From NCBI GenBank assembly GCA_021831595.1, contig JAKBMK010000020.1:2801-66800 (forward strand): a DNA stretch of 64,000 bases, in the 5' to 3' direction. The notes beneath the pieces were generated by a model. It was not told the origin of the DNA, made no database searches, and saw only the letters and a program-made list of their open reading frames with translations. A program made the position numbers and the translations under genes. Below, in pieces: positions 5,048 through 43,471 of the stretch. The DNA comes from a bacterium. Lineage in GTDB: Bacteria; Patescibacteriota; Minisyncoccia; Phycocordibacterales; UBA9973. Position 1 is the first letter of the stretch. Each line of letters begins with the position of its first letter.

Positions 5048-5584
5048 ATGGCATACAATACAACAAATTTTAAGACAAAATTAAAAGGGGCAGAAGAATG
5101 GCTTTCAAAGGAGTATGGTTCTGTACATACAGGCAGAGCAACTCCACTTATTCTTGACTCTGTTATGGTAGAAAGTTATGGAACATACATGCCCATCAAG
5201 AATGTGGCTAGTGTGTCTATCGAAGATCCAAAGACGCTTCGAATCGCTCCATGGGATAAGAGTCAGATCAAAGCGCTTGAAAGTGCTATCTCTGCAGCTA
5301 ATCTAGGACTTTCGGTGGTATCAGATAGTGACGGAGTTCGTGCTATCTTTCCAATGCTTACTACAGAGAACCGCAGCAAGCTTGTAAAAATATTGAAAGA
5401 AAAGCTAGAAGATGCTCGCATCAGTGTTCGCAAAGAAAGACAAGCCGAGATAGACTCGACTTCAGGATTACCAGAAGATGAAGCCAAAAGAGCAAAGGAT
5501 GATATCCAGAAATGTGTAGATGAAGCCAACAACAACCTTGAAGCAATCTTTTCTAAAAAAGAAACAGATCTAATGAATAATTAA
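5048..5584 (+). CDS. frr: ribosome recycling factor
   Basis: 178 aa; full-length match to RRF (NVASVSIEDPKTLRIAPWD...). Confidence 0.92.
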   Translation: MAYNTTNFKTKLKGAEEWLSKEYGSVHTGRATPLILDSVMVESYGTYMPIKNVASVSIEDPKTLRIAPWDKSQIKALESAISAANLGLSVVSDSDGVRAIFPMLTTENRSKLVKILKEKLEDARISVRKERQAEIDSTSGLPEDEAKRAKDDIQKCVDEANNNLEAIFSKKETDLMNN

Positions 5585-5587
5585 ATT

Positions 5588-5626
5588 AAAACCTCTAGAT
5601 TATAATCTAGAGGTTTTAATTTAATC
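5588..5626. terminator. intrinsic terminator inside a 44-bp perfect palindrome (5581-5624)
   Basis: aaaacctctagat-tata-atctagaggtttt followed by a T-rich tail immediately after the frr stop. Confidence 0.6.
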
Positions 5627-27286: not shown

Positions 27287-27294
27287 TAAAAATA

Positions 27295-27324
27295 AAAACT
27301 CCCATATGGGAGTTTTTATTTTTC
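27295..27324 (+). terminator. rho-independent terminator after rpsI
   Basis: aaaactccca-ta-tgggagtttt followed by atttttc. Confidence 0.85.
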
Positions 27325-27755: not shown

Positions 27756-28355
27756 ATGAATGATGAAAATATACAACAAGAAAATACAGAATTAGATGAA
27801 TCAAAATCAGAGGAATTTCAAGACTTAGAATTCGTAGAATCTACAGAAGATGGGGAAATCTTGCCTACGAAAGATGTCGCGAAGAAGCTTCGTGAAGAGA
27901 TAAAAACTTTAAGAAAAGACAAAGAAGAATATCTAACTGGCTGGCAGAGAGCAAAAGCTGATTATGTAAATTTGCAAAAAGAGCTTGATTTAGCTCGTAT
28001 AAATATCGCTATTCTTACAAAAGAGAAAATGGTAGAGAAATTACTCCCTGCTCTTGATAGTTTTGATATGGCATTTTCCAATAAGGAACATTGGGAAAAG
28101 ATTGACAAGGATTGGCAGGATGGTATCACTTCTATTTATCAGCAAATTCTATCTGGTTTAGAGAAATCAGGCATAGAAAAAATAGATGAGAATGGAGTTC
28201 CTTTTGATCCCAGTATTCACCAATCGATCAGCATAATAGAAACAGATGAAGAGAAAAAAGATCACACAGTAGCGAATGTTTTGCAAGTTGGGTACAAGAT
28301 AGGAGAGAGAGTAATCCGCCCTGCAAAAGTCACAATTTTTGAGCACAAAAAATAA
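27756..28355 (+). CDS. grpE: nucleotide exchange factor GrpE
   Basis: Acidic N-terminus, long coiled coil, GrpE core (LPALDSFDMAF ... GVPFDPSIHQ). Confidence 0.88.
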   Translation: MNDENIQQENTELDESKSEEFQDLEFVESTEDGEILPTKDVAKKLREEIKTLRKDKEEYLTGWQRAKADYVNLQKELDLARINIAILTKEKMVEKLLPALDSFDMAFSNKEHWEKIDKDWQDGITSIYQQILSGLEKSGIEKIDENGVPFDPSIHQSISIIETDEEKKDHTVANVLQVGYKIGERVIRPAKVTIFEHKK

Positions 28356-28418: not shown

Positions 28419-31301
28419 ATGATAAAATATATTAGTATTTTGTATCAAAAAATGAAATCAAAAATACTACAATTTATCAAATTGCATTGGCCTAAAATTA
28501 CATCGATATTTTTATTTATTTTGCTGTCTTTAGCATACGCAAATATTTTTGCTGTCTTTACTCCAGGCGAGACTCTTGATCCAAATTGTGCTCCTGGGAC
28601 AGTTGGTTGTACTGTGAATGTCTCTAGTACAGAGACGGACCCTGTTTGGTCTGTCGACAAACCTAGTTATTCTACAAAAGCAGTTGCTGATACTTTGTAT
28701 AAACTGGCCGGATACACTCCTGACTTATCTGCCTATTCTACCAAGTCTGTGGCCGATACTTTGTATCTCGGTATTAATTCTGTTGCTACAAATTCTTCTA
28801 GCTTAGAAGGTCACAGTGCAAGTTATTTTCAAACTGCTCTAGGCTACACACCATACAACGCAACTAATCCAAATGGTTACATCACAGGTATCACATCTCT
28901 AAATGTTACAACTGCTCTTGGTTTTACTCCTTACAATTCTACAAATCCAAATGGCTATATCTCTTCCTATACAGAAACCGATCCAACTATTTCCGCTTGG
29001 GCAAAAGCAGGAGTCAAACCTTCATATTCTTATTCTGAAATATCATCTACCCCAACTCTACTTTCTCAATTTACAAATGATCTAGGTAACTATGGCGGAT
29101 TCGTCACGGGTACACCATGGACTTCTATGGGTTACTTAACATCCTATACAGAAACAGATCCAACTATTTCCGCTTGGGCGAAGGCTGCTACGAAGCCGAC
29201 GTATACTGCTGCAGAAGTAGGTGCTCCATCTGGTTCTGGAAATTCTACAGGAACAAATACTGGCGACAACGCCGTAAACTCTTTGTATTCAGGTCTAACA
29301 GCGTCTAAACAAGATACATTAAACGGTACAGGATTTGTGAAGTCTACTGCAGGAACTATTTCATACGATACGAATACATACCTCACGAGTATTAATTCTG
29401 GGAATGTTACTACTGCCCTTGGTTATACCCCTTACAATGCCACCAATCCAGCTGGATATATTTCTTCTTATACAGAAACCGATCCTACTATTTCCGCTTG
29501 GGCGAAAGCTGTAACTAAGCCTACTTATACAGCAAGTGAAGTAGGACTTGGTAATGTTCCAAATCTTTCTTTCTCAGGAAGTAACACTGGTGACGAAACG
29601 ACTTCATCTATCAAAACAAAACTCGGACAAGCCAATACCACAACTGATGGATATATATCTTCTGTTGACTGGAATACTTTCAACAACAAGCAACCAGCAG
29701 GAAGTTATCTTACTTCCTACACCGAAACCGATCCTACTGTTTCCGCTTGGGCAAAAGCAGGAGTCAAACCTTCATATTCTTATTCTGAAATATCATCTAC
29801 CCCAACTCTACTTTCTCAATTCACAAATGATCTAGGTAATTACGGAGGATTTGTCACTGGAACTCCATGGACAAGTATGGGTTATGTTACAGGTACTCCA
29901 TGGACTTCTATGGGTTACTTAACATCCTATACAGAAACAGATCCAACTATTTCCGCTTGGGCAAAGGCTCTCGTAAAACCTACATACACAGCAAGCGAAG
30001 TAGGACTTGGTAATGTTACGAATGAGAGTAAGGCTACAATGTTTACAAATCCTACTCTTACAGGTACAACAAATATTGCTAATGTGAGTATTACCGGAAG
30101 TATTATTCCTACGGTAGACAATTTTTATTATCTTGGTTCTCCAGCTTTCAGATGGCATTCTCTTTACGTCGGACCGGGTTCTATCTATGTTAACGGACAG
30201 AAAGTTCTTCAGACAGATATGTCGAACAGTGTCGTTATGTCTGCTGATGATGCTCAAAATGTTATTGTTAAAACTACAGGTGGAGGAAATATCGAGCTCA
30301 ATCCTGCTTCAGGTGGTGGAGGAATATTACTCAAGAGTAATGTCACTTTGACTGCAGGCAAATCATTTAGAACTTCTGACTTAACTCCTGTTGTATTTTC
30401 AGATGGCACAAAATCGGGGAATATAAATATCATAGGGAATACGATTTCATCAGGAAACACAAATGGAGATATTGAATTTGCTCCGAATGGAGCCGGGAGA
30501 ACATATGTATCTTCTGGTAATTTTGGAATTGGTAATACTGCTCCAGGGGAAAAGTTAAGTGTCACTGGCAACATTCTCGCCACTGGTACCATCTTGGGTT
30601 CAAATATTTCAGGGAACACAAGTGGCACCAACACTGGTGACAATGCAGTGAACTCTCTATACAGTGGACTTGCATCTTCAAAACAAGATGTACTAAGTGG
30701 TACAGGATTTGTGAAGTCTACTGCAGGAACTATTTCATATGACACGAATACATACCTCACAACGGCATCAGCAGGTTCAACTTACATTCCTTATACAGGC
30801 GGTACTTCAAACGTTGATCTTGGAGCTCATAATCTTACAGTTGATACAAATACACTTTTTGTTGACGCCACAAACCATAAAGTAGGTATTGGGATGACAA
30901 ATCCGAATTATGTTTTGGATATTGCTGGTAATGGAATTCAAGTAACAAGAAGTGGTTCAAACCCATCTGTTATTTTGAGCTCTACTGGTTATACAGGAAG
31001 TGCTGGAGACACAGTTGGCTCATTAGCATTTCGTGGAAATGATAATAGTGCCTCAAATGTTTTGTTTGGTTCTATAAATGGATTCGATGTCGTTCCTACT
31101 GCTGGAGCTGTAACTGGTGGAATTAATTTTAAAGTTCCAGTAGCTGGTACTCTTACTGAAATTATGAGAATAAATGGGAATAATGTCGGAATTGGAATTA
31201 CAAACCCATTTTCTCCATTGAGTGTTGTTAGTGGAGAACAAGAAACTGCAACTGCATTTTTCCATCAAAACGCTCCAACTAATAAACCAACATACACATA
31301 A
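28419..31301 (+). CDS. giant fibre-like surface protein, N-terminal segment (probably the same gene as 31424-39049)
   Basis: 960 aa; N-terminal signal anchor; at least 6 copies of YTETDPT[IV]SAWAKA modules; the C-terminus already begins GNNVGIGITNP-type repeats. Confidence 0.75.
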   Translation: MIKYISILYQKMKSKILQFIKLHWPKITSIFLFILLSLAYANIFAVFTPGETLDPNCAPGTVGCTVNVSSTETDPVWSVDKPSYSTKAVADTLYKLAGYTPDLSAYSTKSVADTLYLGINSVATNSSSLEGHSASYFQTALGYTPYNATNPNGYITGITSLNVTTALGFTPYNSTNPNGYISSYTETDPTISAWAKAGVKPSYSYSEISSTPTLLSQFTNDLGNYGGFVTGTPWTSMGYLTSYTETDPTISAWAKAATKPTYTAAEVGAPSGSGNSTGTNTGDNAVNSLYSGLTASKQDTLNGTGFVKSTAGTISYDTNTYLTSINSGNVTTALGYTPYNATNPAGYISSYTETDPTISAWAKAVTKPTYTASEVGLGNVPNLSFSGSNTGDETTSSIKTKLGQANTTTDGYISSVDWNTFNNKQPAGSYLTSYTETDPTVSAWAKAGVKPSYSYSEISSTPTLLSQFTNDLGNYGGFVTGTPWTSMGYVTGTPWTSMGYLTSYTETDPTISAWAKALVKPTYTASEVGLGNVTNESKATMFTNPTLTGTTNIANVSITGSIIPTVDNFYYLGSPAFRWHSLYVGPGSIYVNGQKVLQTDMSNSVVMSADDAQNVIVKTTGGGNIELNPASGGGGILLKSNVTLTAGKSFRTSDLTPVVFSDGTKSGNINIIGNTISSGNTNGDIEFAPNGAGRTYVSSGNFGIGNTAPGEKLSVTGNILATGTILGSNISGNTSGTNTGDNAVNSLYSGLASSKQDVLSGTGFVKSTAGTISYDTNTYLTTASAGSTYIPYTGGTSNVDLGAHNLTVDTNTLFVDATNHKVGIGMTNPNYVLDIAGNGIQVTRSGSNPSVILSSTGYTGSAGDTVGSLAFRGNDNSASNVLFGSINGFDVVPTAGAVTGGINFKVPVAGTLTEIMRINGNNVGIGITNPFSPLSVVSGEQETATAFFHQNAPTNKPTYT

Positions 31302-31423
31302 GACAAACAGGGGCAGGAGGTAATGCAAACGTTAACCAAGGATTATTAGTACAAGTTCAAGGAAATGTAAGTAGTAATATAGCAGATTTTGCTTACTGGG
31401 ATGGAGCAACTTCAACAAGCAGA

Positions 31424-34400
31424 ATGATAATTAGACAAAATGGTAATGTTGGAATCGGGATTTCTGCTCCGGCAAATACGTTGCAGGTAGGAGGACTTGT
31501 TAGTTGGGGTAGTGCATCCTCTCGCTATGGAATTTTGGATTACGCAACAGGGAAGGCAATGCTCTATGGCACATCTGGCAATGCTTTAAGTCTTGGTGCA
31601 AATGGGACAGGAGATTATTTGTATATAACAACCGCAGGACTGGTCGGTATAGGCACTGTCAGTCCAACACAAATAATGCATATATACGGCACTTCTATTC
31701 GTCCACAAATTGAAAGTACCGCTAATGGCGGTTATAGTTCGTTGCGGTTTGTGGGGAAAAATAGTGCAGGGACAGCAAGGGTATTTGAAGTTGGGTTAAA
31801 CATAACAGCAGATGATGTTTGGCAAATAACAGATGGTAGTAGTACTTTTGTAAATGTGAACACCTCTGGCAATGTTGGAATTGGAACTGCGGCACCTTCT
31901 ACAAAATTGGAGGTTGTTGGAACAGCACTTATAGGTAACTTAGCCAATACTATTTCAACCCCAAGTGTTAGATTTTCTGGAGTTGGTATTTATCATCCAG
32001 ATACAAATTACTATGGTGATTATGCTGGATTATTATTGAATGCATCTAGTGCTTGGACAGGTTCTGCAAAAAGATTCCTTATTACAAATGCATTAAATGC
32101 AAACAAATTTGCAATTATAAGAAGTGTAGATTCATCAACTGATCCAGCACTTGGAACTGCTGGTGCTGTTTCTTCTGGTACTGCAGATTTTGTTATTGAT
32201 GCATCTGGTAACATCGGAATCGGGACAACAAGTCCATCACATAAACTTACAGTTACCGGTGGTAACTTAGCAGTAGAAAATGGAAATATGTATTTAGCTT
32301 CAGGTTACCCACTTTATTTTGATTATGGAATTACAAATGATTATTCTATTGCAAAAAGTGGTACAGTTTTGCAATTAAACACAGCTGGCTCGTTTGCAAT
32401 GATGGGTGGTAACGTCGGAATCGGGACGACGAGTCCATCAACAAACTTAGAGATATATGGCTCTAGTCCTATATTAAAAGTAACTCAAAATCCAGGCGTT
32501 GCTGGTGGGGGAACTATTGCTTTGACCGCAGCTGGAGTTGGTTCAGATACAAATGCTGCTACTTTAAATTTATATAATGGTTCTCTTTGGAGTAGAACTG
32601 ATGGATCAGGCATAAGATTTGGTAGTGCAGATAAAACTTCAACATGGGGGATTCTTGGGAGTAATGTTGGTGTCGGAACAACGAATCCTACAGAAAGATT
32701 AGATGTTGTTGGTAATGCGAAAATTTCATCGACGTTACTTCTTGAAGGGCAATATGTTGATTTTTATAATACAAACCCAACATTTAGAGTTGTTACTGGT
32801 CCTGGTACATTCTTAATTGGTGATGATGACAATGTCTCTTTATCTTCCGGTAGATTTTTTGTGAAAAATAACGGCAATATCGGTATCGGCACTACGAGTC
32901 CACAAAATAAATTACAGATTGCAAATGGTGGAATATATTTAACATCGGATAATTTTGATACAGATGGAATTCATCAGCCACTTGCATGGAATCCTAGCTC
33001 CAGTAATTTACAACAATCAATTATTGGTAGTGTAAATTCTGATTATGCAGATACAAGTAGTACAGGAGGAACTCTCGGTATTCGTATAGGTGCAAATGGT
33101 GGATTGTATGAAGGAGTCCCAGGATATATGAATGCAGGTATGCAAGCATTGATTTATGGAAATGGAGGAGATGGGGCTAAGGGTGGAGGATATCTTCAAT
33201 TTTTGACAAAAGATAATACTACTTCATATTCTGCAAATGGAGATGTGCGGATGACCATAAACCCAATTGGTAATGTCGGTATCGGGACGACAACACCGGT
33301 ATCTTTGCTTGGATTAACACACGGTAAGATTACCGTTGGACAGGGGGCTAATGATAAAGCAGAACTACAAGGTGGAACAGGATTTGGTGCTTTGTTGAGA
33401 TTATATGAAGGATCAGGAGGAACAGAAACTGTCAGATTAGATGCCGGTGGTGGTGGAGGAACAAGCTGGATAACAAGTGGTAACGTTGGTATTGGAACGA
33501 CGAGTCCAGATAATAAACTTTCTGTAGTAGCAGGTGGAGCGGCTGGTGGTTTTAGTCAAGGGTTAAGTATCATAACAGGGAATAATTCTTATACAACAGG
33601 ACATGGTGGAATGCTCCAATTTCAAAATGAAGATGTTGTAACTGCTGGGATTAGAGGGGTAAGAGAAGATAGTTGGAAATCGGGATTAAGTTTCTATACT
33701 CACAGTTCAGGTGTTGGTAATACTTTTGATTCAACTTTCTTAGAAAGAATGAGAATAGATGGTAATGGTAATGTTGGAATAGGGACGACGGGGGCACTGA
33801 CTAAGCTGGATGTAAATGGAGTTATTGGTAAAAGACATACAGTTGCTGGTACAGTTGCATCTCCATCCGTTGAAGGCGCTTTACAATTCGTCACTGGTGA
33901 TACTTCAACATTACTTGATGTAGGAATGTTTTTTGTAAATGAATTTTTTAATAATAATGCTGCTTATATGGCATTCAAAACTAGAGATGCGGATACTACA
34001 ATCAGGACAGCAATGACAATATATAAAAATGGTAATGTTGGAATCGGGACAACGAGTCCAAGTCAAAAATTACAAGTTGCTGGGAATATTGCTCTTGATG
34101 CAGAACTAACAGAAAGATTTATACGCATAGCAGGGTCTTATGGTGGAGCTATAAGATTCAGAGGTAATGCTAGTGCTGTTGACGATAGATCACTTCAATT
34201 TGGAACGATGGATGGGAATAATTTGTTTACCCCAAGAATGATCGTAGACACAAACAGTGGTAACGTTGGTATTGGAACAGTAACTCCTGCAAAAACACTT
34301 GAAGTTAATGGTGATATTATGGCTAGTAGTAGTGGTAAGATAGGATTTAGATATTCAGGTGCAGATAATAATTTTTATAGTTATATAGAAGGATATCCAG

Positions 34401-37400
34401 CTGGTGGTGCTCTTACTCTTGCGGGAGGATTGTGGACAAGTTCTGCTACACAAAAAGCTATTACTTTCAAGACTCAAGGAGTAGCAGACGCAATGTCTAT
34501 TTTGAATAATGGAAATGTCGGTATCGGTACGACGAGTCCACAAACGAAACTTTCTGTTTCTAATGGAGGGAGTCAAAATATTGAGATTGATCCAGGTTTT
34601 ATTCAAAGCTTCAATCGTACTACTCCAGGTTATGCTGCTTTACCATTTTATGGAAGTAATTTTAGTTTTAATGTTGGTAATGTCGGAATCGGAACAACGA
34701 ATCCTACATATCCATTAGAAATTAAATCAGCAGTAGGTGCTGGAGCTTTAGCTTTAGTAGGGAGAGATGCTGATAATGTCTCATCTTTTGAATTTTTAAA
34801 TAGTGGAAAAACTTCTAGCGCTTATATCCAAGGTAATGGTTCATGGATAAGATCCAGAGCAGATGGAGGGTTTCATTTCTCAAAAGGATCTACTCCTATA
34901 GTTACAGGAACTGATTTTACAATAGAAGGTTTGAATGTCGGTATTGGAACAACTTCTCCAAATGCAAAACTTGATGTGGCTGGAATCATCAGATCAAATG
35001 CTTCGAATGTAGGTACTTTAAATCTTGGTTCAGATTCATTCAGTAGTACATACACAACTGCTCAAATAATAGGGTCAACCTCTCCTTCATATACAAGTAC
35101 TGGTAAATTATCTTTTAAAGTTTTAACTTGGGGTGTTAATACTGATTATGGTTTAACAGAACAGATGTATATTGATGTTCCTGGTGCTGATTCAAAAGCT
35201 GCAACTATAGTGATGGCACCATATGGTGGCAATGTGGGAATTGGCACGACAAGTCCTCAGTATTCTTTGCATTCTCCGGGGAGTGCATCATTTGGTTTAG
35301 GATCAGAACTACTTTTGAATAATAGTAGTTTTGAATCGGATACTTCTTCTCCTCCAAGTAGTTGGTCCAATCTGGGGAATACCACAGGTACAGCTGTCGT
35401 AGACGGATCTGCTCCTTCGGGGAATAATGTTGCGGAAGTAGTTGCGACTGGTAGTGGAACTATTGGGTATAATGCTTTTAAAACAGCCTCACCATTAGTA
35501 TTAGGCAAGACTTACAAGATTACTTATTATGCTAAAAGTATTAGTGGTGGAACAACGATAAGTCTAGGTATCCAAGCAACAGTTGATTATCAGTATAACC
35601 AAGCCATTTCTACTTCATGGTCTCAGTATTCAGTAACACACACAGGAACAATTAATCCGATGACTATTGGTTTTTCTTCTGCTAGTGGGGCAGCAACTTT
35701 TAGGGTTGATAATATTTCGGTAAAAGAAGTAAATAATCTTTATGTTGGAACAAATGGAAGTGTAGGTATTGGATCTACATCACCAATAAGTGTTCTTGAA
35801 GTTAAAAGTGCTGCTCCAATTTTGACAATTAATGGAACTGACAACTCACAATTCAAAGGAATTAATTTTGCAACGCTTGGAAGCGTGCAAGCTAGTTTGT
35901 TGTCGAATATTGCAACAGGAGAACTGAAACTTCAATCAGGTACTTCTGGTTTCGGTGGATTTATGACATTTAATTTAGATGGTAGTGAGAGAATGAGAAT
36001 TCAAGCAACAACAGGTAATGTAGGTATTGGAACAACGGCACCAGGAGCGAAGTTTGAAACATCTAGTGTTTCAAGTGGTTTAGTTTGGAATGGAATTTTA
36101 AGAAATGACTATAATGCCAATGCAACAAATTATGGAGTCGGATTGAAATTAAAAGTTAGTAGCGATGGAGTGCCAAATGAAATTAATAAATGGGTAGGTC
36201 TTGCTGCTGTAGCTGGCAGTACATATTCTAATAGGACAGATTTGGCCTTGTATACATCTGCATCATCAGCAACAGACCCAACTGAGAAAATGCGAATTGA
36301 TGGAAACGGTAATGTTGGAATTGGAACACAAACTCCTGGAGCAAAATTAGATGTAATTGGAAATATTTATCTAAGTTCAGCTAATCCTTATGGTGGTTCG
36401 AGTGTTTATAATGTCCAAAAAGAGCAAAATGTTAGCAGCGCAAGTGTGGCTGGAGCGGGATGGTATCGTGTTGCTCAGCTTGGGGATGTACGTGGACAAA
36501 ACACAGTTACTATTTACACCACAGGAGGAAGTTATGCCCCACAAAGTACAACGATAAGATGGTGGCATGATTGGTCAGCTCAAGGTGGATTAAATGTCAT
36601 TTCAGAATTTGGTTCTAGCTTTTGGAGTCAAGCACGAGTGACAAGTGATGGCATAACTAATTCATATTTGGAAGTTTACTTTAATCAAGCTATGGCAGGT
36701 GGTGTCTATCTTTCAATGCAATATGATGGAGGTTTTGCAAAAGGATCACTTTATAGTGGGTCTTTGCCTGTTGGTGGTGATACAGTAAGAATGACTACAA
36801 CAACTGGATTACTGTCTGTTGGGGACAAATTGACTATAAATAATTCTGGCAACGTTGGAATTGGAATAACAAGCCCAAGCCAAAAATTAGATGTAAACGG
36901 TATTCTTAAAATAGAAGGACAGGCTAGTTCGACCTTTAATTCAACCTCGCAAGGAATTTCTTTCTTTGCTGGTAATGATAACTATAAGATTGGTTTTGAT
37001 AGTCAAGCTGGATCAAGGGGTTATATTCGTTACAACGTAGATACGAATGATAGTGTTCACGGACATATTTTTTCAGCTGGTGCATCAGGAAGTCAAACAG
37101 ACTTAATGACAATTCTAGGTAACGGCAACGTCGGGATTGGTACGGCGAATCCAGGGACAAAACTTGATATCCAAGGAGCGATAAATACTTCCCCTGTATC
37201 AATAGCACAATCTGGCGCAGCAAACAATACATTCGGTGATTATATAGGTCTTGATTTCAAGATGTCAAACGAGATGTCGCAGTATACGGGCAATCCTGCA
37301 GCGAGAATCTCAGCGTATCTGGAAGGAGGAAGCAATGGTTACGGATTGGATTTTTGGACGAAGCTCGATGCAGCAAACTTTAGCAAGGCAATGAGGATAA

Positions 37401-39049
37401 ACAGGTATGGCAACGTAGGTATTGGGACAACAAGCCCGGGAGAAAAGTTGCATATATATCAAGCTTCAGGAGAGCCTCATTTAGCATTAGAATCTGGCGA
37501 TTCAAACGCAGGAATATATATTAAAGCAGCAGCTGCAGCGTTTCCTTATATTAGATTTTATCAGGGTGGAGTAGGAAAATTTGAAATGGGAAAAGTTGCT
37601 TCGAATGGAAATTTTTACTTCAACAATACAACAGCATCTGGAGAAACAAATGCAACGATGGTAATTTCATCTGGTGGCAACGTCGGAATTGGAACAACGA
37701 GTCCGGATTATAAACTAACCGTAAATAGTTCAGGGAATACAAGTTCAGCTGCAAGTGCGTTGCATGGTCAATATTATGGACCGATGATTTCTACTGGACA
37801 AACAAGTTCGAGTTATTATGCTTTGAATATTACCAATAATGCATCAAGTCCAGGAACAGGAAATTCAATTTTTTATGTAAGAGCTGATGGTAATATTGGT
37901 ATCGGAACGACAAATCCTAGAGCAAGTTTAGAAATTGCTGGTGGTATTAGGGTGGCTGATGGTGTATACGGCGTTTCAAATAGTGCTGGTAATCAAATAT
38001 TAGCATCGTCGAGTGGCAGTAATTATCTATATAGCAGAACTTCTGGCAACCTTATAATCAGAAATGGTGCGGATTCAGCTGAGTTGTTAAGAATTACAGA
38101 TTCCGGTAACGTTGGGATTGGTACAACCAGCCCAAATCAGAAATTGGAAGTCAGTGGCACGATTAGACAAAGTGGTTGTACTACAGCGGGAACGATATCG
38201 GTCAATGCATCAGGAGATATTATATGTACTCCTTCATCAATCAGTTTCAAGAATACTAGAGAAGATTTAGAAGTAGGCTTGCAGACTTTGATACAACTAA
38301 AGCCAGTATCGTACAAATTCAATGACAATATGGATATGGGCGAGAAGACTCACTTCGGATTCATTTCAGAAGAAGTCGACTATGTTCTCCCTGAGCTTGC
38401 AACTCATGATAAAGACGGCAAGCCTTATGGCCTTGATACCAATGCGATTCTTGCGGTGACAGTAAACGCTGTGAAGGAGCTCAATACCAAAGTCGAAGAA
38501 ATGAATTTGAAGATTTCTGACTTGTCATCACTCGACACTACGAAGGCCACTTCACTCGGAAGTTTGATAAAGACTTTCCTAGCAGATGAATACAACAGAG
38601 TCGAAAAGATATTTGCCAAGACTGTCGTCACCGAAGGCCTCGAGATGAAAGATAGCGCAACAGGCGAGACATATTGCGTAATGGTCACAAATGGGGAAAT
38701 AAACAAAGTGAAAGGGAAGTGTGGCGAGCCTATTGTCGCTCCAGCTTCACAAGCAGCTTCGCCTGTAGTTTCTACTCTTCCTACTCCTAGTTGTACTGAC
38801 GGCATAATGAATCAAGACGAGACGGGGATAGATACGGGTGGTATATGCGATGTCCCAGTACTTGCGGATATGACTGCATACGATAATGCTCTTGCTGCAA
38901 AAGTTGAAGCGGACTATACGACAGATAGTTGGGCTCTCTACAAAGCAGTTCTCGATGCCAACATCGTCACAAATACTAATACTCAAGTCGAAGTCGACAC
39001 CGCCGTTGCCAACATCACCTCCGCCCAGGGAAGTCTAATTCCAAATTAA
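31424..39049 (+). CDS. giant fibre-like surface protein: about 25 GNVGIGTTSP repeats, CBM4_9-like insert, Peptidase_S74-like intramolecular chaperone domain, FIVAR-like C-terminus
   Basis: 2541 aa; this frame is open from 31286, overlapping the upstream ORF by 15 nt. Repeat starts G-N-V-G-I-G-T-T-S-P-x-x-K-L-[DE]-V. CBM at roughly nt 35300-35730 (NSSFE...GKTYKITYYAKS...FRVDNISV). S74-like at roughly 38230-38530 (LQTLIQLKPVSYKFND...FGFISEEVDYVLPELA...GLDTNAILAVTVNAVKELN). FIVAR-like at roughly 38870-39040. Confidence 0.8.
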   Translation: MIIRQNGNVGIGISAPANTLQVGGLVSWGSASSRYGILDYATGKAMLYGTSGNALSLGANGTGDYLYITTAGLVGIGTVSPTQIMHIYGTSIRPQIESTANGGYSSLRFVGKNSAGTARVFEVGLNITADDVWQITDGSSTFVNVNTSGNVGIGTAAPSTKLEVVGTALIGNLANTISTPSVRFSGVGIYHPDTNYYGDYAGLLLNASSAWTGSAKRFLITNALNANKFAIIRSVDSSTDPALGTAGAVSSGTADFVIDASGNIGIGTTSPSHKLTVTGGNLAVENGNMYLASGYPLYFDYGITNDYSIAKSGTVLQLNTAGSFAMMGGNVGIGTTSPSTNLEIYGSSPILKVTQNPGVAGGGTIALTAAGVGSDTNAATLNLYNGSLWSRTDGSGIRFGSADKTSTWGILGSNVGVGTTNPTERLDVVGNAKISSTLLLEGQYVDFYNTNPTFRVVTGPGTFLIGDDDNVSLSSGRFFVKNNGNIGIGTTSPQNKLQIANGGIYLTSDNFDTDGIHQPLAWNPSSSNLQQSIIGSVNSDYADTSSTGGTLGIRIGANGGLYEGVPGYMNAGMQALIYGNGGDGAKGGGYLQFLTKDNTTSYSANGDVRMTINPIGNVGIGTTTPVSLLGLTHGKITVGQGANDKAELQGGTGFGALLRLYEGSGGTETVRLDAGGGGGTSWITSGNVGIGTTSPDNKLSVVAGGAAGGFSQGLSIITGNNSYTTGHGGMLQFQNEDVVTAGIRGVREDSWKSGLSFYTHSSGVGNTFDSTFLERMRIDGNGNVGIGTTGALTKLDVNGVIGKRHTVAGTVASPSVEGALQFVTGDTSTLLDVGMFFVNEFFNNNAAYMAFKTRDADTTIRTAMTIYKNGNVGIGTTSPSQKLQVAGNIALDAELTERFIRIAGSYGGAIRFRGNASAVDDRSLQFGTMDGNNLFTPRMIVDTNSGNVGIGTVTPAKTLEVNGDIMASSSGKIGFRYSGADNNFYSYIEGYPAGGALTLAGGLWTSSATQKAITFKTQGVADAMSILNNGNVGIGTTSPQTKLSVSNGGSQNIEIDPGFIQSFNRTTPGYAALPFYGSNFSFNVGNVGIGTTNPTYPLEIKSAVGAGALALVGRDADNVSSFEFLNSGKTSSAYIQGNGSWIRSRADGGFHFSKGSTPIVTGTDFTIEGLNVGIGTTSPNAKLDVAGIIRSNASNVGTLNLGSDSFSSTYTTAQIIGSTSPSYTSTGKLSFKVLTWGVNTDYGLTEQMYIDVPGADSKAATIVMAPYGGNVGIGTTSPQYSLHSPGSASFGLGSELLLNNSSFESDTSSPPSSWSNLGNTTGTAVVDGSAPSGNNVAEVVATGSGTIGYNAFKTASPLVLGKTYKITYYAKSISGGTTISLGIQATVDYQYNQAISTSWSQYSVTHTGTINPMTIGFSSASGAATFRVDNISVKEVNNLYVGTNGSVGIGSTSPISVLEVKSAAPILTINGTDNSQFKGINFATLGSVQASLLSNIATGELKLQSGTSGFGGFMTFNLDGSERMRIQATTGNVGIGTTAPGAKFETSSVSSGLVWNGILRNDYNANATNYGVGLKLKVSSDGVPNEINKWVGLAAVAGSTYSNRTDLALYTSASSATDPTEKMRIDGNGNVGIGTQTPGAKLDVIGNIYLSSANPYGGSSVYNVQKEQNVSSASVAGAGWYRVAQLGDVRGQNTVTIYTTGGSYAPQSTTIRWWHDWSAQGGLNVISEFGSSFWSQARVTSDGITNSYLEVYFNQAMAGGVYLSMQYDGGFAKGSLYSGSLPVGGDTVRMTTTTGLLSVGDKLTINNSGNVGIGITSPSQKLDVNGILKIEGQASSTFNSTSQGISFFAGNDNYKIGFDSQAGSRGYIRYNVDTNDSVHGHIFSAGASGSQTDLMTILGNGNVGIGTANPGTKLDIQGAINTSPVSIAQSGAANNTFGDYIGLDFKMSNEMSQYTGNPAARISAYLEGGSNGYGLDFWTKLDAANFSKAMRINRYGNVGIGTTSPGEKLHIYQASGEPHLALESGDSNAGIYIKAAAAAFPYIRFYQGGVGKFEMGKVASNGNFYFNNTTASGETNATMVISSGGNVGIGTTSPDYKLTVNSSGNTSSAASALHGQYYGPMISTGQTSSSYYALNITNNASSPGTGNSIFYVRADGNIGIGTTNPRASLEIAGGIRVADGVYGVSNSAGNQILASSSGSNYLYSRTSGNLIIRNGADSAELLRITDSGNVGIGTTSPNQKLEVSGTIRQSGCTTAGTISVNASGDIICTPSSISFKNTREDLEVGLQTLIQLKPVSYKFNDNMDMGEKTHFGFISEEVDYVLPELATHDKDGKPYGLDTNAILAVTVNAVKELNTKVEEMNLKISDLSSLDTTKATSLGSLIKTFLADEYNRVEKIFAKTVVTEGLEMKDSATGETYCVMVTNGEINKVKGKCGEPIVAPASQAASPVVSTLPTPSCTDGIMNQDETGIDTGGICDVPVLADMTAYDNALAAKVEADYTTDSWALYKAVLDANIVTNTNTQVEVDTAVANITSAQGSLIPN

Positions 39050-39068
39050 ATTAATTAAAAATTAAGTC

Positions 39069-39100
39069 AGGACAAACTCTGCACCTGCAGAGTTTGTCCT
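39069..39100. repeat. palindromic hairpin AGGACAAACTCTGCA-cc-TGCAGAGTTTGTCCT, copy 1
   Basis: perfect 15-bp arms; 33 of 34 nt identical to copy 2; lies between the giant gene stop and the PaaX-like gene. Confidence 0.8.
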
Positions 39101-39128
39101 AGATAAAATTTGGGTATATAATATTTGT

Positions 39129-39608
39129 ATGTCTATTGTAAGAGAAATATTAGATGAACTTTGGAATACAGAATACAATTACAAGGGAGTAAGGGTAAAT
39201 ATTTTTGGTATTCCGCGATTTAAAAAATATTCTGATAGTAGTTTACAACGAACGATAAATCGTTTAAAAGAGAAAGGAATAATAGAAAAAGAATTATCTG
39301 GAATTGTGCTTTCTAAATATGGTAAAAAATATTATCAGAAAAAGTTTGATTCTCTAAAACAATTTGAAAGACCCAAGAATCAACCCAAAGAGCGGAAACT
39401 CTTGGTAATGTTTGATGTTCCAACAGAAAAGAAGGGCGAGAGGGAATGGCTCCGCTGGCATTTAAAGAAATTCGATTATATTATGATTCAGCAAAGTGTC
39501 TGGGTTGGCCCATCACCACTACCTAAGGAATTTACTGAGTATTTAAAGAGTATAAAGCTGGATAGATGTATTAAGACTTTCAAACTAGAAAAACCATATT
39601 TTATTTAA
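39129..39608 (+). CDS. PaaX-like transcriptional regulator (wHTH plus PaaX_C-like domain)
   Basis: 159 aa; C-terminal KLLVMFDVPTEKKGEREWLRWHLKKFDYIMIQQSVWVGP matches the PaaX_C pattern (W..D.PE...R..LR..L...GF..L..SVW..P). Confidence 0.55.
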   Translation: MSIVREILDELWNTEYNYKGVRVNIFGIPRFKKYSDSSLQRTINRLKEKGIIEKELSGIVLSKYGKKYYQKKFDSLKQFERPKNQPKERKLLVMFDVPTEKKGEREWLRWHLKKFDYIMIQQSVWVGPSPLPKEFTEYLKSIKLDRCIKTFKLEKPYFI

Positions 39609-39630
39609 TATATTGTATTATATATAAAAT

Positions 39631-39664
39631 CAGGACAAATTCTGCACCTGCAGAGTTTGTCCTG
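39631..39664. repeat. palindromic hairpin CAGGACAAATTCTGCA-cc-TGCAGAGTTTGTCCTG, copy 2
   Basis: 16-bp arms with one T:G wobble; lies between the convergent PaaX-like genes. Confidence 0.8.
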
Positions 39665-39685
39665 ATTAATATTTATATATTAATG

Positions 39686-40207
39686 TTATTTGCACAGTTC
39701 GAAAAATTCTTTTTCGGTGGATTCGTCGATTTTATCAGTGACGATGATGATGAGTTCGGTAGAAAGATTTAAATCTTTTTTGATATTTGTAAAGAGATGC
39801 TCAAAAGGATATACAGATATCCAAACAGAATTTTTGAGGCAAGTGAATCCTGCTTTTTTGAGTAAGTAGCGAAGAGCTTCACGCTCACTCTTTCTTTCTT
39901 CTGGCATATCGAGAAGTATTATTCTCCAAAATCCATCCCAAGTATTACTTACTATGGCATTATCGCACTCAAGCTTGAGACTGTTGGCCTTCTTCTTGCC
40001 TTCTTTTGTAAGTTTGGCGTATTTATTCTGGCCAGAGTCCACACTTTCTATGAGTCCTGCGTCTTTTAGACCCTTTATAGAGCGATTTAGAGCATACTGG
40101 CTATCCTTATCTAGGGCAATCTTGTCTTCTAGTTCAGAGACGGAAACAGCCGGTCTTTCGGACAGGATTTTGATAATTTTCTTTGAAAAATCACGCTTTT
40201 TTAACAT
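39686..40207 (-). CDS. PaaX-like transcriptional regulator (paralog), divergent from dnaK
   Basis: 173 aa; N-terminal wHTH; C-terminal WDGFWRIILLDMPEERKSEREALRYLLKKAGFTCLKNSVWISVYP. Confidence 0.6.
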   Translation of the reverse strand: MLKKRDFSKKIIKILSERPAVSVSELEDKIALDKDSQYALNRSIKGLKDAGLIESVDSGQNKYAKLTKEGKKKANSLKLECDNAIVSNTWDGFWRIILLDMPEERKSEREALRYLLKKAGFTCLKNSVWISVYPFEHLFTNIKKDLNLSTELIIIVTDKIDESTEKEFFELCK

Positions 40208-40208
40208 G

Positions 40209-40308
40209 TTGACATTATATCATAGGTGATTATAATATTCAACAAGTATTTTGCGGTCGCTAAATACTTGTCAAAAAATAAGTGTGAGTGTATACTGGGA
40301 GTGTGAGT
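40209..40308 (+). promoter_or_regulatory. dnaK control region: two tandem sigma70-like promoters plus inverted and direct repeats
   Basis: P1 is TTGACA(40209-14)-16-TATAAT(40231-36). P2 is TTGTCA(40268-73)-17-TATACT(40291-96). IR ACAAGTATTT-N10-AAATACTTGT (40242-40271) overlaps the P2 -35. Direct repeats AGTGTGAGT at 40281-89 and 40300-08 flank the P2 -10. Confidence 0.45.
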
Positions 40309-40352: not shown

Positions 40353-42248
40353 ATGAGTAAAATAATAGGTATAGATTTGGGTACAACAAACAGTGCAGTT
40401 GCCATCATAGAAGGTGGACAACCAAAAATTATTGAGAATATCGAAGGAGCACGTACAACTCCATCAGTAGTTGCCATCACAAAGAATGGTGATAGAATGG
40501 TGGGTCTTCTTGCCAAGCGTCAGGCAGTGACAAATCCGGAGAATACCGTATATGGTATCAAGAGATTCATTGGCCACATGTATGATGATCCTGAAATACA
40601 AAAAGACGAGAAAACAATTCCTTACAAAATTCAAAAAGGAAGTACAGGAGGAGTAGAAACTAAAATCGGAGATGGTTGGCTTCGTCCAGAAGAAATTTCT
40701 GCGATGATATTAAGTAAAATTAAAGCTGATGTCGAAGCAAAACTCGGTGAGAAAATTACTGAAGCGGTTATTACTGTGCCAGCTTACTTCAACGATGCAC
40801 AAAGAAAAGCTACGAAAGATGCTGGAATTATCGCTGGACTTGATGTGAAGAGAATTATCAATGAGCCTACAGCCGCAGCTCTCGCTTATGGATTTAATAC
40901 AAAGAAGAATGAGAAAATAGTTGTTTATGACTTTGGGGGTGGAACGTTTGATGTTTCAGTTCTTGAGGTTGGAGATGATGTTATCGAAGTAAAGTCTACA
41001 GACGGAGACTCACACATGGGAGGTGAAGATATAGATCAAAAGATTGTGAAGTGGATTGCTGATGAATACAAGAAAGAGTCTGGTATTGATGTCACGAAAG
41101 ATATGCTTGCACTACAACGCTTAAAAGAAGCTGCTGAGAAGACAAAGCACGAACTTTCAACTACTACTGATTCAGAAATAAATATTCCATTCATCACTTC
41201 TGATGCTTCAGGGCCAAAGCACTTACTCCTAAAGATGTCTCGTGCTGTTCTCGAATCTCTAGCTGAAGAATATGTTACTCGTTCTATAGAGATCACAAAG
41301 CGTGCTATTGAAGCTTCACCATTTAAGATGGGAGAAATAAATGAAATAATTCTCGTTGGTGGACAGACAAGAATGCCAATGATTGTAGAAGCAGTAAAGA
41401 AATTATTTGGCAAGGAACCAAATCGTTCTATCAATCCAGATGAAGTTGTCGCTCTCGGTGCTGCTGTTCAGGCTGGAGTATTGCAAGGAGATGTACGTGA
41501 TGTTCTTCTTCTAGACGTTATTCCTCTATCTCTTGGTATTGAAACATTGGGAGGAGTTTCTACAAAACTTATAGATAGAAATACAACAATTCCTTCTTCA
41601 AAGTCCCAAATATTCTCAACTGCTGCAGATAATCAGACAAGTGTAGAAATCCACATAACTCAAGGTGAACGTCCAATGGCAAGTGACAACAAGAGTTTGG
41701 GCCGATTTATTCTAGATGGTATTCCACCTGCACCAAGAGGTATTCCTCAAGTAGAAGTTACTTTTGATGTGGATGCAAACGGAATTCTAAATGTGAAGGC
41801 TATGGATAAGGCTTCAGGTAAGGTTCAATCTATACGTATTGAAGCTTCATCAGGCCTCACAGATGCTGAAATAAAGAGAATGCAAGATGATGCAGCAGCT
41901 CATGCCGCTGAAGATGCCAAGAAAAAGGAACTTGCAGATGTGAAGAATACTGCCGAAATGATGATCTTCACAGCAGAGAAATCTGTGAAAGATTATGGAG
42001 ATAAAGTAGACGCTGCTATTAAGACAGAGGTAGAAGCCAAAATAGCCCTACTTCGAACAGCAAAAGATGGATCTGGTATGGAGGCTATTAAAAAAGCGAC
42101 AGAAGATCTTTCAGCTGAAATGTCTAAAATAGGTGAAGCTATGAGTAAAGCAGGTACAGGACCAACCGAAGGTACCAATCCTACACCTGAGGCTCAAGAA
42201 CCAGAAATAAAAGACGCAGAAGTAAATGAGAACCCAGAAACTAAGTAA
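40353..42248 (+). CDS. dnaK: molecular chaperone DnaK (Hsp70)
   Basis: [18 protein letters not shown], full-length Hsp70. Confidence 0.97.
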
Positions 42249-42385: not shown

Positions 42386-43471
42386 ATGCCCAAAGATTAT
42401 TACAAAATATTAGGAGTAGACAAGAAAGCTTCAAAGGAAGAAATAAAAAAAGCTTTTCATAAACTAGCTCATGCTCATCATCCAGACAAGAATAATGGTG
42501 ATGACAAAAAGTTTAAAGAAGTGAATGAAGCTTATCAAGTTCTTTCTGATGACAAGAAGAGGGCTTCTTATGATCAATTCGGTAGTGCTGACGGGCCACA
42601 AGGCTTTGGTGGTGGAGGATTCGGAGGCCAGGGAGGATTTGGCGGATTTGATTTCAGAAATGGACAGGGAGGAATGGAATTCGATATGGGCGACCTAGGA
42701 GAAATCTTTGGTGACTTTTTTGGAGGTGGAAGAACTAAAAGTAAATCTAGAAAAGGTAGAGATGTACATACAGAAATTTATTTATCTTTTGAAGAAGCTG
42801 TTTTTGGAGTTGAGAAAAAGATAAATTTAAATAAACAATCTATTTGTAGTGTGTGTGGTGGAACAGGTGCCAAGGTTGGTACAAAAATGGATAATTGTAA
42901 GACTTGTAATGGCCAAGGTCAAATAAGAGAAATTCGTCGTTCAATACTAGGCAATTTTGAATCTGTAAAGACTTGTGAGACTTGTTTTGGAAGTGGTAAA
43001 GTTCCAACGCAGAAATGTAGTGAGTGTCGCGGCGCTGGGGTTGTAAAAAAGAATGAAGAAATAACCATAAAAATACCATCAGGTATAAATAATGGAGAAA
43101 CTTTACGTGTGCGTGACCAAGGAGAAGCTATTCAAGGAGCTTCTGCTGGGGATCTGTACATAAAGATGAATGTCAAAAACCATACGGTCTTTACTCGTGA
43201 AGATGCAAATTTATTGATGGATTTGAAGATAAAACTCACAGACTCACTCTTAGGGTTTAATTATAATTTGAAAACCTTGGATGGACATAACATAGAAGTG
43301 AAGATTCCAGAAGGAATAAATAACGGCGAAATGCTTCGTGTTCGAGGTAAAGGTGTGCCCGTCGGCGGAGGAAGAGGAGATATAATCATCAAGATTCATG
43401 TAGATATACCTAAGAAACTTTCTCGCAAAACAAAAGAAATAATAGAAGAGCTCAAGAAAGAAGGGTTGTAA
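42386..43471 (+). CDS. dnaJ: molecular chaperone DnaJ
   Basis: J-domain with HPD, G/F-rich region, four CxxCxGxG zinc-finger repeats. Confidence 0.95.

Follow-up and report, generated by a model that had tools for sequence, protein, structure and literature searches.

Two half-size relatives of the regulator PaaX, encoded by the convergent genes ORF1 and ORF2, lie upstream of dnaK in a 64,000-nt stretch of a Patescibacteriota genome (GenBank assembly GCA_021831595.1, contig JAKBMK010000020.1, positions 2,801 to 66,800), referred to here as the window. ORF1 is flanked by two copies of one palindrome, and a palindrome of unrelated sequence separates ORF2 from dnaK. By comparing this locus with its relatives, we conclude that the two flanking palindromes are probably the cognate DNA sites of ORF1, and that ORF2 is likely an autoregulated repressor of dnaK-dnaJ acting through its own palindrome. 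As far as we found, the ORF1-palindrome pair is conserved, apparently undescribed and widespread in ultra-small bacteria of the candidate phyla radiation (CPR): no published description of the protein-site pair was found in the literature on PaaX- and Cas2-like proteins, on Patescibacteria or Parcubacteria palindromes, or on HrcA in CPR. Regulation is barely known in these largely uncultured bacteria, and the analysis yields two testable protein-site pairs, one a candidate dnaK regulator in an HrcA-like position and the other mostly tied to thymidylate kinase and nucleotide-salvage genes.

ORF1, ORF2 and the palindromes that flank ORF1

The original prediction, made from the letters of the window alone, described two PaaX-like regulators with a PaaX_C segment, and placed both open reading frames (ORFs) exactly (Table 1). 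We find that the segment in question is PaaX_M (PF20803), the central Cas2-like domain of PaaX, which both proteins match well above its cut-off of 24 (ORF1, E = 2.9e-12, 47 bits; ORF2, E = 2.3e-19, 69.7 bits). The two families named in that prediction for a search, PF07848 and PF08223, gave no match at E <= 1 in either ORF in a Pfam profile search. The N-termini of both proteins have weak Pfam matches to MarR, ArsR and HTH_20, and both end directly after PaaX_M, without a C-terminal PaaX_C domain. ORF1 and ORF2 are therefore half-size "mini-PaaX" proteins, composed of a winged helix and PaaX_M, and are 35% identical to each other over 119 aa. An AlphaFold2 model of ORF1 (predicted local distance difference test score 84.6) consists of a winged helix-turn-helix (HTH), a linker helix and a beta-alpha-beta-beta-alpha-beta domain (residues 91-152), with the recognition helix at about residues 36-48. 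A fold search of the PDB ranked PaaX-like Rv0674 (3kfw) and PaaX of E. coli (8a39) highest, with winged-helix repressors next, in agreement with the N-terminal winged helix that had been predicted. A sequence search of the PDB with ORF1 returned nothing significant, so that there the link to PaaX comes from the fold search only.

Only two copies of the ORF1-type palindrome occur in the 64-kb window at up to three mismatches, where shuffled sequences lead us to expect none, and a looser family motif recovers the same two copies only, at 0 mismatches. Both flank ORF1, as originally described. They were said to be identical at 33 of 34 positions and both perfect; we count 32 of 34, with differences at position 10 (C/T) and position 34 (A/G), and only copy 1 is a perfect 15+2+15 palindrome (39069-39100), while copy 2 has one T.G position, yet a stem that extends over 40 nt (39628-39667). 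As RNA, copy 1 folds with -28.2 kcal/mol on the + strand and -25.9 kcal/mol on the - strand, and copy 2 with -32.4 and -28.0 kcal/mol, respectively; hairpin stability of both copies corresponds to z = -6.7 to -8.2. The -35 element of the predicted ORF1 promoter lies inside the right arm of the upstream copy and its -10 element ends 6 nt ahead of the ATG, and from this predicted transcription start we infer a leaderless ORF1 mRNA. The centre of the upstream copy lies 45 nt from the ATG, a distance like that in the orthologues.

Table 1. Positions of the genes, predicted promoters and palindromes in the window (+ and -, strand;., none)
Feature	Position	Strand	Description
grpE	27756-28355	+	PF01025, E = 6e-37
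ORF1-type palindrome, upstream copy	39068-39101	.	proposed ORF1 operator; CAGGACAAACTCTGCA-CC-TGCAGAGTTTGTCCTA; perfect stem 39069-39100; family core ACAnnnTCTGCnnnnGCAGAnnnTGT at 39072-39097
ORF1 promoter, predicted	39094-39122	+	TTGTCC-17-TATAAT; consensus scan, 10/12 match
ORF1	39129-39608	+	159 aa
ORF1-type palindrome, downstream copy	39628-39667 (full stem); 39631-39664 (34-nt core)	.	CAGGACAAATTCTGCA-CC-TGCAGAGTTTGTCCTG; proposed second operator and hairpin terminator between convergent ORF1 and ORF2
ORF2	39686-40207	-	173 aa; convergent with ORF1
dnaK-facing promoter, sigma-70 type, predicted	40209-40236	+	TTGACA-16-TATAAT; 12/12 match; just upstream of the ORF2-type palindrome
ORF2 promoter, predicted	40214-40242	-	TTGAAT-17-TATAAT with TG extension; 10/12 match
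ORF2-type palindrome	40243-40270	.	CAAGTATTTTGCG-GT-CGCTAAATACTTG; proposed operator common to ORF2 and dnaK
Second dnaK promoter, predicted	40268-40296	+	TTGTCA-17-TATACT; 10/12 match
dnaK	40353-42248	+	proposed ORF2 target
dnaJ	42386-43471	+	proposed ORF2 target

The flanking arrangement is a rule among ORF1 relatives, whose loci (numbered L below; proteins are numbered P) span 56-91% protein identity. A palindrome copy lies both up- and downstream of the ORF1 orthologue in 13/13 genome-derived loci. We also searched 80 metagenome loci (56-88% protein identity) with the motif ACAnnnTCTGCnnnnGCAGAnnnTGT at up to 2 mismatches; among the 70 that could be evaluated, both copies are present in 58, just the upstream one in 2, just the downstream one in 7 and none in 3, so that the downstream copy is present in 65/70. 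Loci scored as lacking a copy mostly carry degraded copies that are recognisable by eye. The 410 kb of DNA flanking these loci hold 9 further sites only. The upstream centre lies 42-49 nt ahead of the ATG in most loci, and the recurrent layout (palindrome, ~18 nt, TATAAT, 6-7 nt, ATG) sets the site over ORF1's own predicted promoter at a fixed distance. From 189 non-redundant sites we derived the extended consensus AAAnTGAyACAwwyTCTGCnnnnGCAGArwwTGTrTCAnTTT, which is bordered by A-rich sequence to its left and T-rich sequence to its right (AAA...TTT). The bracketing copies occur in direct or inverted orientation, and the L011 pair are exact reverse complements, imperfections included.

The relation to characterised proteins is partial. 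PaaX is the repressor of the phenylacetate catabolon and binds a palindromic operator. PaaX of E. coli and Pseudomonas and Rv0674, the best structural matches, are likewise built of an N-terminal winged helix followed by PF20803. In contrast, ORF1 and ORF2 have 159 and 173 aa rather than ~300, lack PaaX_C and score far below the cut-off of the PaaX equivalog model TIGR02277 (16.4 bits for ORF1 and 39.6 bits for ORF2 vs 264.55). Their neighbours are not paa genes but fibre genes, grpE and dnaK in the window and thymidylate kinase (tmk) and NUDIX genes in relatives, and phenylacetyl-CoA is an unlikely ligand. Their sites are also much longer (26-42 bp), and ORF1 differs further in the bracket of sites around its gene and in its hypervariable specificity.

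The C-terminal domain of ORF1 is homologous to Cas2, of which it keeps the beta1 Asp (D96) and the QxSVW strand, and ORF1 narrowly passes the cut-offs of TIGR01573 and PF09827 (26.1 vs 24.5 bits and 24.3 vs 23.8 bits). Within the Cas1-Cas2 complex, dimers of Cas2 are seated on duplex DNA. However, these matches are confined to model positions 3-40 or 3-51, in the first half of the models, the domain is fused to a winged helix, and the window has neither cas1 nor a CRISPR array, its regular repeats being coding repeats of the fibre genes only. In Paceibacteria/Nomurabacteria (CPR), the ORF1 family comprises 850 database clusters and the ORF2 family 2094, and their members are named 'CRISPR-associated endonuclease Cas2' by NCBI or 'PaaX' by JGI. 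Both names are misleading, and the NCBI one is a misnomer. We rejected a defence or CRISPR system, as PADLOC gave partial Cas2 matches only, many but weak, and the window has no array. A phage element was rejected as well, with no IMG/VR match and only weak HTH matches in PHROGs.

Co-variation of ORF1 with the flanking palindromes

The main result of the comparison is that protein and site vary together. Across the ORF1-family alignment, identity per column is 78% overall, and variability is among the highest at positions 41 and 36. At the centre of the site, the variation follows residue 122, located in the beta-hairpin of the QxSVW strand in the Cas2-like domain: K122 occurs with the core TCTGC[C/G/T], mostly with a CCATGG centre, and Q122 or H122 with TCTGCA..TGCAGA. 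This pairing holds in all 50 loci whose two copies agree (50/50; mutual information (MI) 0.97 bit). The H122 lineages are scattered among K122 lineages and have K122 sequences among their nearest neighbours.

The outer boxes follow the recognition helix. When MI was measured against the two bases just outside the ACA box, the highest values fell on columns 41, 37, 40, 36 and 44, all in the predicted recognition helix, while equally variable columns elsewhere (5, 85, 136, 158 and 159) had much lower MI. Each helix class goes with its own outer box: RTTIDRL with TGA[C/T]ACA, QVTINRL with GGAAACA, R[A/G]TIDRL with TGCTACA, RNTIDRL with TGGTACA, YNTISRL with CTATACA, QITINRL with GGCAACA and QRTINRL, the helix of the window's ORF1, with CAGGACA. 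At least 9 helix classes include both K122 and Q/H122 variants, with the matching centre each time, which indicates that the helix/box and 122/centre associations assort independently, a pattern that shared ancestry alone is unlikely to have produced.

The two copies at a locus also agree with each other, as the outer triplet is common to both in 54/67 loci, where 8.5 would be expected. The recombinant relative L006 combines an I41 helix and a GGCAACA downstream copy with a window-type CAGGACA upstream copy. The original prediction had remarked that the two hairpins of the window are more alike than the two proteins and had supposed that the palindrome is conserved for its own sake, perhaps as a protein-binding site. 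This is borne out in so far as the palindrome flanks ORF1 in nearly all relatives and co-varies with the recognition helix and residue 122, as a binding site would. The greater likeness of the hairpins would follow from the need of both copies to fit ORF1. Joint use of the hairpin by both regulators, also implied there, is not supported; both copies belong to ORF1.

We propose that an ORF1 dimer would bind the ~40-bp palindrome as duplex DNA, with its two recognition helices reading the outer boxes (cAGG-ACA / TGT-CCTg in the window) and the beta-hairpin of its Cas2-like domain, through residue 122, reading the bases beside the dyad. As the upstream copy overlaps the -35 element of the putative leaderless promoter, ORF1 would repress itself, and the same site would face the divergent thymidylate kinase promoter in most genomes. 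The downstream copy may act as a second operator, possibly for looping, and its hairpin of about -30 kcal/mol may also end the convergent ORF1 and ORF2 transcripts. ORF1 specificity would be hypervariable, with protein and sites changing together, and this would be why the copies match within a genome and differ between genomes. The presence of the same cis element on either side of a gene recalls looping of the GalR/LacI type and BglG, whose gene, like that of LicT, lies between two terminators. In the ORF1 case, by contrast, the regulator gene lies in its entirety between two sites ~560 bp from each other, both of which are also strong hairpins.

The bracketing of a regulator gene by its own sites, a co-evolving hypervariable specificity, the apparent reading of the site centre by a Cas2 fold and the tolerance of the element in coding sequence (see below) appear to be an unusual combination of properties. 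As the code suggests, the Cas2-fold domain may contribute base-specific DNA contacts, and a natural recognition code that pairs the outer box with residue 41 and its neighbours, and the centre with residue 122, could guide the engineering of specificity.

ORF2 and the dnaK promoter region

The organisation around ORF2 resembles that of ORF1. The -10 element of the predicted ORF2 promoter ends 6 nt before the ORF2 ATG and its -35 element abuts the left arm of the ORF2-type palindrome, which suggests a leaderless mRNA for ORF2, as for ORF1. This palindrome is unique in the window, where none would be expected by chance, its sequence is unrelated to the ORF1-type element, and it is kept as GTATTTaGyGGTCrCkAAATACTTGTCAAAA in seven genomes. 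The second predicted dnaK promoter overlaps the palindrome's right arm with its -35 element, just as the ORF1 promoter does with its own palindrome, and is kept as TTGTCA-17-TATAAT in L001, L005, L013, L059, L140 (TTGTAA) and L141. The upstream dnaK promoter is found as TTGACA-N17-TATAAT in L001, L005 and L141 and as close variants in L013 and L140, and is not evident in L059. A direct repeat, AGTGTGAGT, flanks the TATACT -10 element of the second promoter (40281-40289 and 40300-40308); L006 has the same repeat unchanged and L059 has part of it.

Gene order is equally stable. ORF2 orthologues (56-99% identity) lie between grpE, or ORF1 where it is present, and dnaK(-dnaJ), and are convergent with the grpE/ORF1 side and divergent from dnaK in the window, L001, L005, L013, L059, L140 and L141; the syntenic loci encode HSP70 and DnaJ Pfam domains. 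The ORF2 recognition helix is near-invariant, matching its invariant site. Set between the putative leaderless ORF2 promoter and the dnaK promoters, the ORF2-type palindrome would serve both. On the strength of this arrangement, ORF2 is most likely an autoregulated repressor of dnaK-dnaJ and an older paralogue with fixed specificity. The original proposal that the two regulators control the fibre gene, dnaK or both would accordingly be retained for dnaK, through ORF2 only and its palindrome, and not for the fibre gene.

The position of ORF2 recalls HrcA and its CIRCE operator. As with HrcA, the gene has a fixed place in the grpE-dnaK-dnaJ cluster, promoter and dnaK are separated by a conserved inverted repeat, the repeat contains TTAGC...GCTAA as CIRCE does, and autoregulation is likely. 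The likeness is one of function, in gene order and in operator position. Unlike HrcA, ORF2 has no HrcA domain and is transcribed away from dnaK instead of heading the operon, and its repeat is of the form 13-2-13, with no 9-nt spacer. No HrcA family was among the Pfam and NCBIfam matches of the ORFs, and CIRCE (TTAGCACTC-N9-GAGTGCTAA) had 0 matches in the window at up to 3 mismatches, on which grounds we rejected an HrcA/CIRCE identity. ORF2 is thus the best candidate for a dnaK-operon repressor in these bacteria, with an HrcA-like role outside the HrcA family.

Dispersed copies, competing explanations and gene context

The element also occurs away from ORF1. A scan of a genome collection, which covered one centre type, TGCA-NN-TGCA, returned 50 stretches, ~37 of them in CPR genome bins; the window's species was not among the matches. 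The 13 matches outside CPR have short stems and are chance-like. JAENWX carries at least 12 copies, JAPLXT has 5, and DATKGV and JBAYKD have 4 apiece. The idea of a genome-wide repeat family, raised in the original prediction, is correct in that the element is repeated, but the families are small (~4 to at least 12 copies per genome), and with 2 copies in 64 kb a high-copy genome-wide repeat was rejected. Solo copies neighbour genes for YgjP, a zinc-finger protein, an Lcl_C pilin-like protein, an aldo-keto reductase, RNase Y and GatB, as well as TatD, TrmB, SmpB, RplE and an ExoIII-like nuclease. Several of these are nucleases and a nucleotide-salvage theme is possible; a coherent regulon was rejected, the neighbours being heterogeneous.

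Four copies lie in frame inside genes, namely in miaA of two genomes (L015 3847, L018 1951), in a tatD-like gene and in a reverse transcriptase-like gene, and the T-run is mostly absent from copies inside genes. The peptide encoded in miaA, TNSA[MPGR]AEFV or TFSA[GPM]AENV, occupies the same loop in 51-55/120 of the closest MiaA homologues (~45%; P0241-P0360), and a homologue without the insert is 84% identical to the insert-bearing query. This loop appears as a surface 'hairpin slot', in which other MiaA homologues carry a different insert (PRQGLAEN type) or none. The PRQGLAEN-type insert of L142, the one case examined, is a weaker hairpin, CTAGGCaagGCCTAG. We saw neither a target-site duplication nor a clean empty/filled pair at miaA, where the linker has diverged too far. 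Whether these copies reflect a regulatory site tolerated in coding sequence or a new small mobile repeat, either would be unusual.

Some genomes hold more than one specificity. JAENWX has at least 3 ORF1 paralogues (N41/H122, I41/Q122 and Y40-N41/K122; L012, L054 and P0163, the last on the contig of L039) and five solo palindromes of the TGACACA type that match none of its known paralogues, which predicts a further one. On contig JBBABB010000001 / Ga0265292_1000033 (361,958 bp; L036, L072), ORF1 has K122 and CCATGG-centred flanking sites, and the same contig carries a solo palindrome of the TGCA-CC-TGCA type (L036 4044-4069), which implies a second paralogue or a relic site.

Several observations weigh against ORF1 being a plain repressor with the palindromes as its operators. 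The extra copies beside unrelated genes and in frame inside genes are more than a simple regulon accounts for. Only 9/18 solo copies match the outer-box type of an ORF1 resident in the same bin. An asymmetric site variant, ACACTT...GTTTGT, recurs. The upstream copy lacks a T-run and is not called a terminator on the + strand, and so is not a canonical terminator of the fibre gene. The co-variation is drawn from related sequences and may in part reflect shared ancestry, and the neighbour-joining tree, built on 157 aa, is weakly resolved. Finally, the non-conserved outer arms are complementary out to ~20 bp (70-94% vs 25-60% in shuffles, with all four pair types) and the variable triplets in 72-74% of cases vs 43-49% in shuffles. 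A plain operator needs no such complementarity, which points to an additional need for a hairpin or cruciform or to a copying mechanism.

A copying mechanism is central to the first alternative, in which the palindrome would be a small self-copying element of the REP (repetitive extragenic palindrome), MITE (miniature inverted-repeat transposable element) or Rickettsia type, ORF1 its mobilising or maintenance protein, the solo copies non-autonomous offspring, and binding a means of propagation. Many of the above observations suit it: the bracket of two copies, direct or inverted, that always surrounds the ORF1 gene, up to the exact reverse complements of L011; the dispersed and in-frame copies, with a MiaA peptide that comes and goes among close homologues; the hypervariable specificity with several paralogues in one genome; the ORF1 cassette in several gene contexts; and the replaced downstream copy by which the window and L006 differ. 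In several genomes, moreover, solo copies follow the resident specificity, including the one in miaA of CAILJY, and copying would explain this more easily than many parallel mutations. Such an element would resemble RAYT/REP (REPIN) systems, in which a gene lies between two ~35-40-nt palindromes with further copies elsewhere in the genome, protein variants are each matched by a repeat variant of their own, and a genome can contain more than one such pair. It would also resemble the Rickettsia palindromic element, which is found in frame in conserved genes, encodes a surface-loop peptide and is present or absent among homologues.

Nevertheless, we consider self-copying rather unlikely. Searches of Pfam, NCBIfam, PADLOC and PHROGs found no transposase, HUH/Y1_Tnp, tyrosine or serine recombinase or DDE signature in ORF1, which, unlike RAYT, is not a Y1/HUH protein. 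Copy numbers are tens of times below those of REPs, at tens of copies at most rather than hundreds, and there are no REP doublets. No target-site duplication or clean empty/filled pair was seen at miaA, and the same position is occupied across deep divergence and in many lineages, which resembles inheritance rather than repeated insertion. In contrast to the Rickettsia element, the ORF1-type element measures ~40 bp rather than ~100-150 bp, has a dedicated cognate protein gene and is mostly intergenic. A promoter geometry as fixed as this, together with tmk as a conserved divergent partner, is what one typically sees for a regulator. Viral contigs gave no match. The fuller version of the idea, that ORF1 and its palindrome form a self-propagating CPR protein-repeat system that spreads in frame into essential genes, with orthogonal pairs coexisting, is also improbable in our view, if worth keeping in mind; if true, it would amount to a REP/RAYT-like system that uses another protein fold, with a base-reading Cas2-fold domain.

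A second alternative places the element in RNA, with the hairpins as terminators or processing sites and ORF1 as a binder of the RNA stem-loop that would adjust termination or the stability of mRNAs, by analogy with BglG/LicT. The hairpins are indeed very stable, with co-varying non-conserved stem positions and A-rich and T-rich flanks on the two sides, 3' ends and the intervals between convergent genes hold many of the copies, and the single mismatch in copy 2 of the window would be a G.U pair in RNA of the ORF1 sense strand. Ferredoxin folds that bind RNA are related to the Cas2 fold, and RNase activity has been reported for Cas2/VapD proteins. The details of the sites speak for duplex DNA. 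The base pair next to the dyad is complementary in 90% of the 189 sites, compared with 43% in shuffles, although a 2-nt loop would keep these bases from pairing; their complementarity is no requirement of a hairpin loop and indicates two-fold duplex symmetry. The conserved inner boxes are strictly kept in sequence, not by pairing alone, and by inspection the mismatches (T.G, T.T, A.G, C.T, C.C) show no obvious G.U bias. The ORF1 promoter lies downstream of the upstream copy, which is therefore absent from the ORF1 transcript, other copies lie in divergent promoter regions (tmk/ORF1; L009 (5959), L023, L044, L046), and intragenic copies would truncate essential transcripts. No Rfam family matches: in Rfam 15 the palindrome gave chance-level matches only (21-25 bits vs cut-offs of 59-100), and a known RNA family was rejected. 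We judge a purely RNA-level role to be quite unlikely. Considering arms and dyad together, we conclude from the sequences that the element is probably an operator that also forms a hairpin or terminator; a cruciform or hairpin bound by one ORF1 monomer per arm may be an alternative binding mode.

In a third alternative, which is very unlikely, ORF1 would not be a transcription factor but a chromosome protein with specific sites, like Tus/RTP-Ter, ParB-parS or MatP-matS; a few sites, some of them within genes, would mark or organise the chromosome, and the gene would be autoregulated via the adjacent site. The few dispersed sites per genome, tolerated in coding regions and beside functionally unrelated genes, would fit such a protein, as would a gene next to a promoter-overlapping site, as with tus/TerB and rtp/TerI. 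Yet ORF1 sites are symmetric where Ter sites are polar, no ParA- or SMC-type gene is adjacent, and several paralogues of differing specificity in one genome are unfit for one chromosome-wide system.

That the palindromes are ordinary bidirectional terminators, duplicated by chance and unrelated to either protein, is hardly credible: long perfect A/T-flanked palindromes do end other genes of the window, and a terminator scan gave terminator-like calls on the + strand for the downstream copy and on the - strand for the upstream one, but the other terminators share no sequence with the element, which flanks ORF1 in 13/13 genome and 58/70 metagenome loci at a mostly fixed distance from the start codon and co-varies with ORF1. 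A generic terminator was rejected on the grounds of flanking and co-variation; the original prediction, which would have accepted one had there been no PaaX-family profile match and many palindromes at unrelated 3' ends, is not refuted on those terms, given a match to PaaX_M and a palindrome that is not scattered over many 3' ends of the window. The unrelated palindromes at gene ends (5580-5625, 15447-15477 and 27288-27323) have A/T-rich flanks and differ in sequence from each other and from the ORF1-type element, and it seems that this genome normally uses perfect palindromes as bidirectional terminators.

We return to ORF1 as a probable regulator acting at its two flanking sites, and to the genes around it. 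The order grpE, palindrome, ORF1, palindrome, convergent ORF2 and dnaK is found in 9/91 loci, the window included, and in the closest relatives only. The commonest context is a divergent thymidylate kinase gene with a common intergenic palindrome (39 loci including duplicates; 29 loci in the neighbour clustering). In most ORF1 loci (L060-L139) this gene, with a conserved -10 element of its own, is the upstream neighbour, for example in L077 and L082, ~110 nt upstream of ORF1. Other recurrent neighbours are a NUDIX gene, usually convergent downstream (19 + 4 loci), and genes for nucleoside 2-deoxyribosyltransferase (6 loci), serine hydroxymethyltransferase (SHMT, 5 loci), DUF1599 (3 loci) and a RecJ-like protein (3 loci), as well as a pur gene cluster (L009). 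By gene association, this suggests a role of ORF1 in (deoxy)nucleotide salvage. A fibre gene lies upstream of ORF1 in 6/91 loci, tmk being the usual partner, and no ORF1-type site is found at the 5' region of the fibre gene in the window, which leaves control of the fibre gene unsupported.

A family of cysteine-rich proteins of ~580 aa, with N- and C-terminal CxxC pairs and no Pfam match, is encoded near ORF1 at ~7 distinct loci (L009 4167-5906; L025 3458-7025; L056, L066, L072, L079, L103, L124 and L127), divergently from ORF1 where the orientation is readable. In L009 and L066 the cysteine-rich gene is itself bracketed by ORF1-type palindromes, and in L025 one such palindrome lies between two tandem paralogues.

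The fibre locus is modular. In relatives, grpE adjoins ORF2 or ORF1, whereas in the window two fibre genes (28419-39049) intervene. L006 has a single fibre protein of 2601 aa (L006 116-7921), whose N-terminal part shares 55% identity over 789 aa with the window's 960-aa protein (28419-31301); the fibre C-termini of the window and L006 are 71% identical, and the adjacent ORF2 proteins 99%. This suggests recombination or cassette exchange in a fibre surface protein. The 2541-aa fibre protein of the window has a Peptidase_S74 domain (endosialidase chaperone) at residues 2273-2325 and ~22 GNVGIGT repeats. In the Nomurabacteria relatives L001-L004 (7236-7886), a gene with a weak Y1 transposase match (PF01797) lies directly beside grpE, near where the window carries the fibre genes and the ORF1 cassette.

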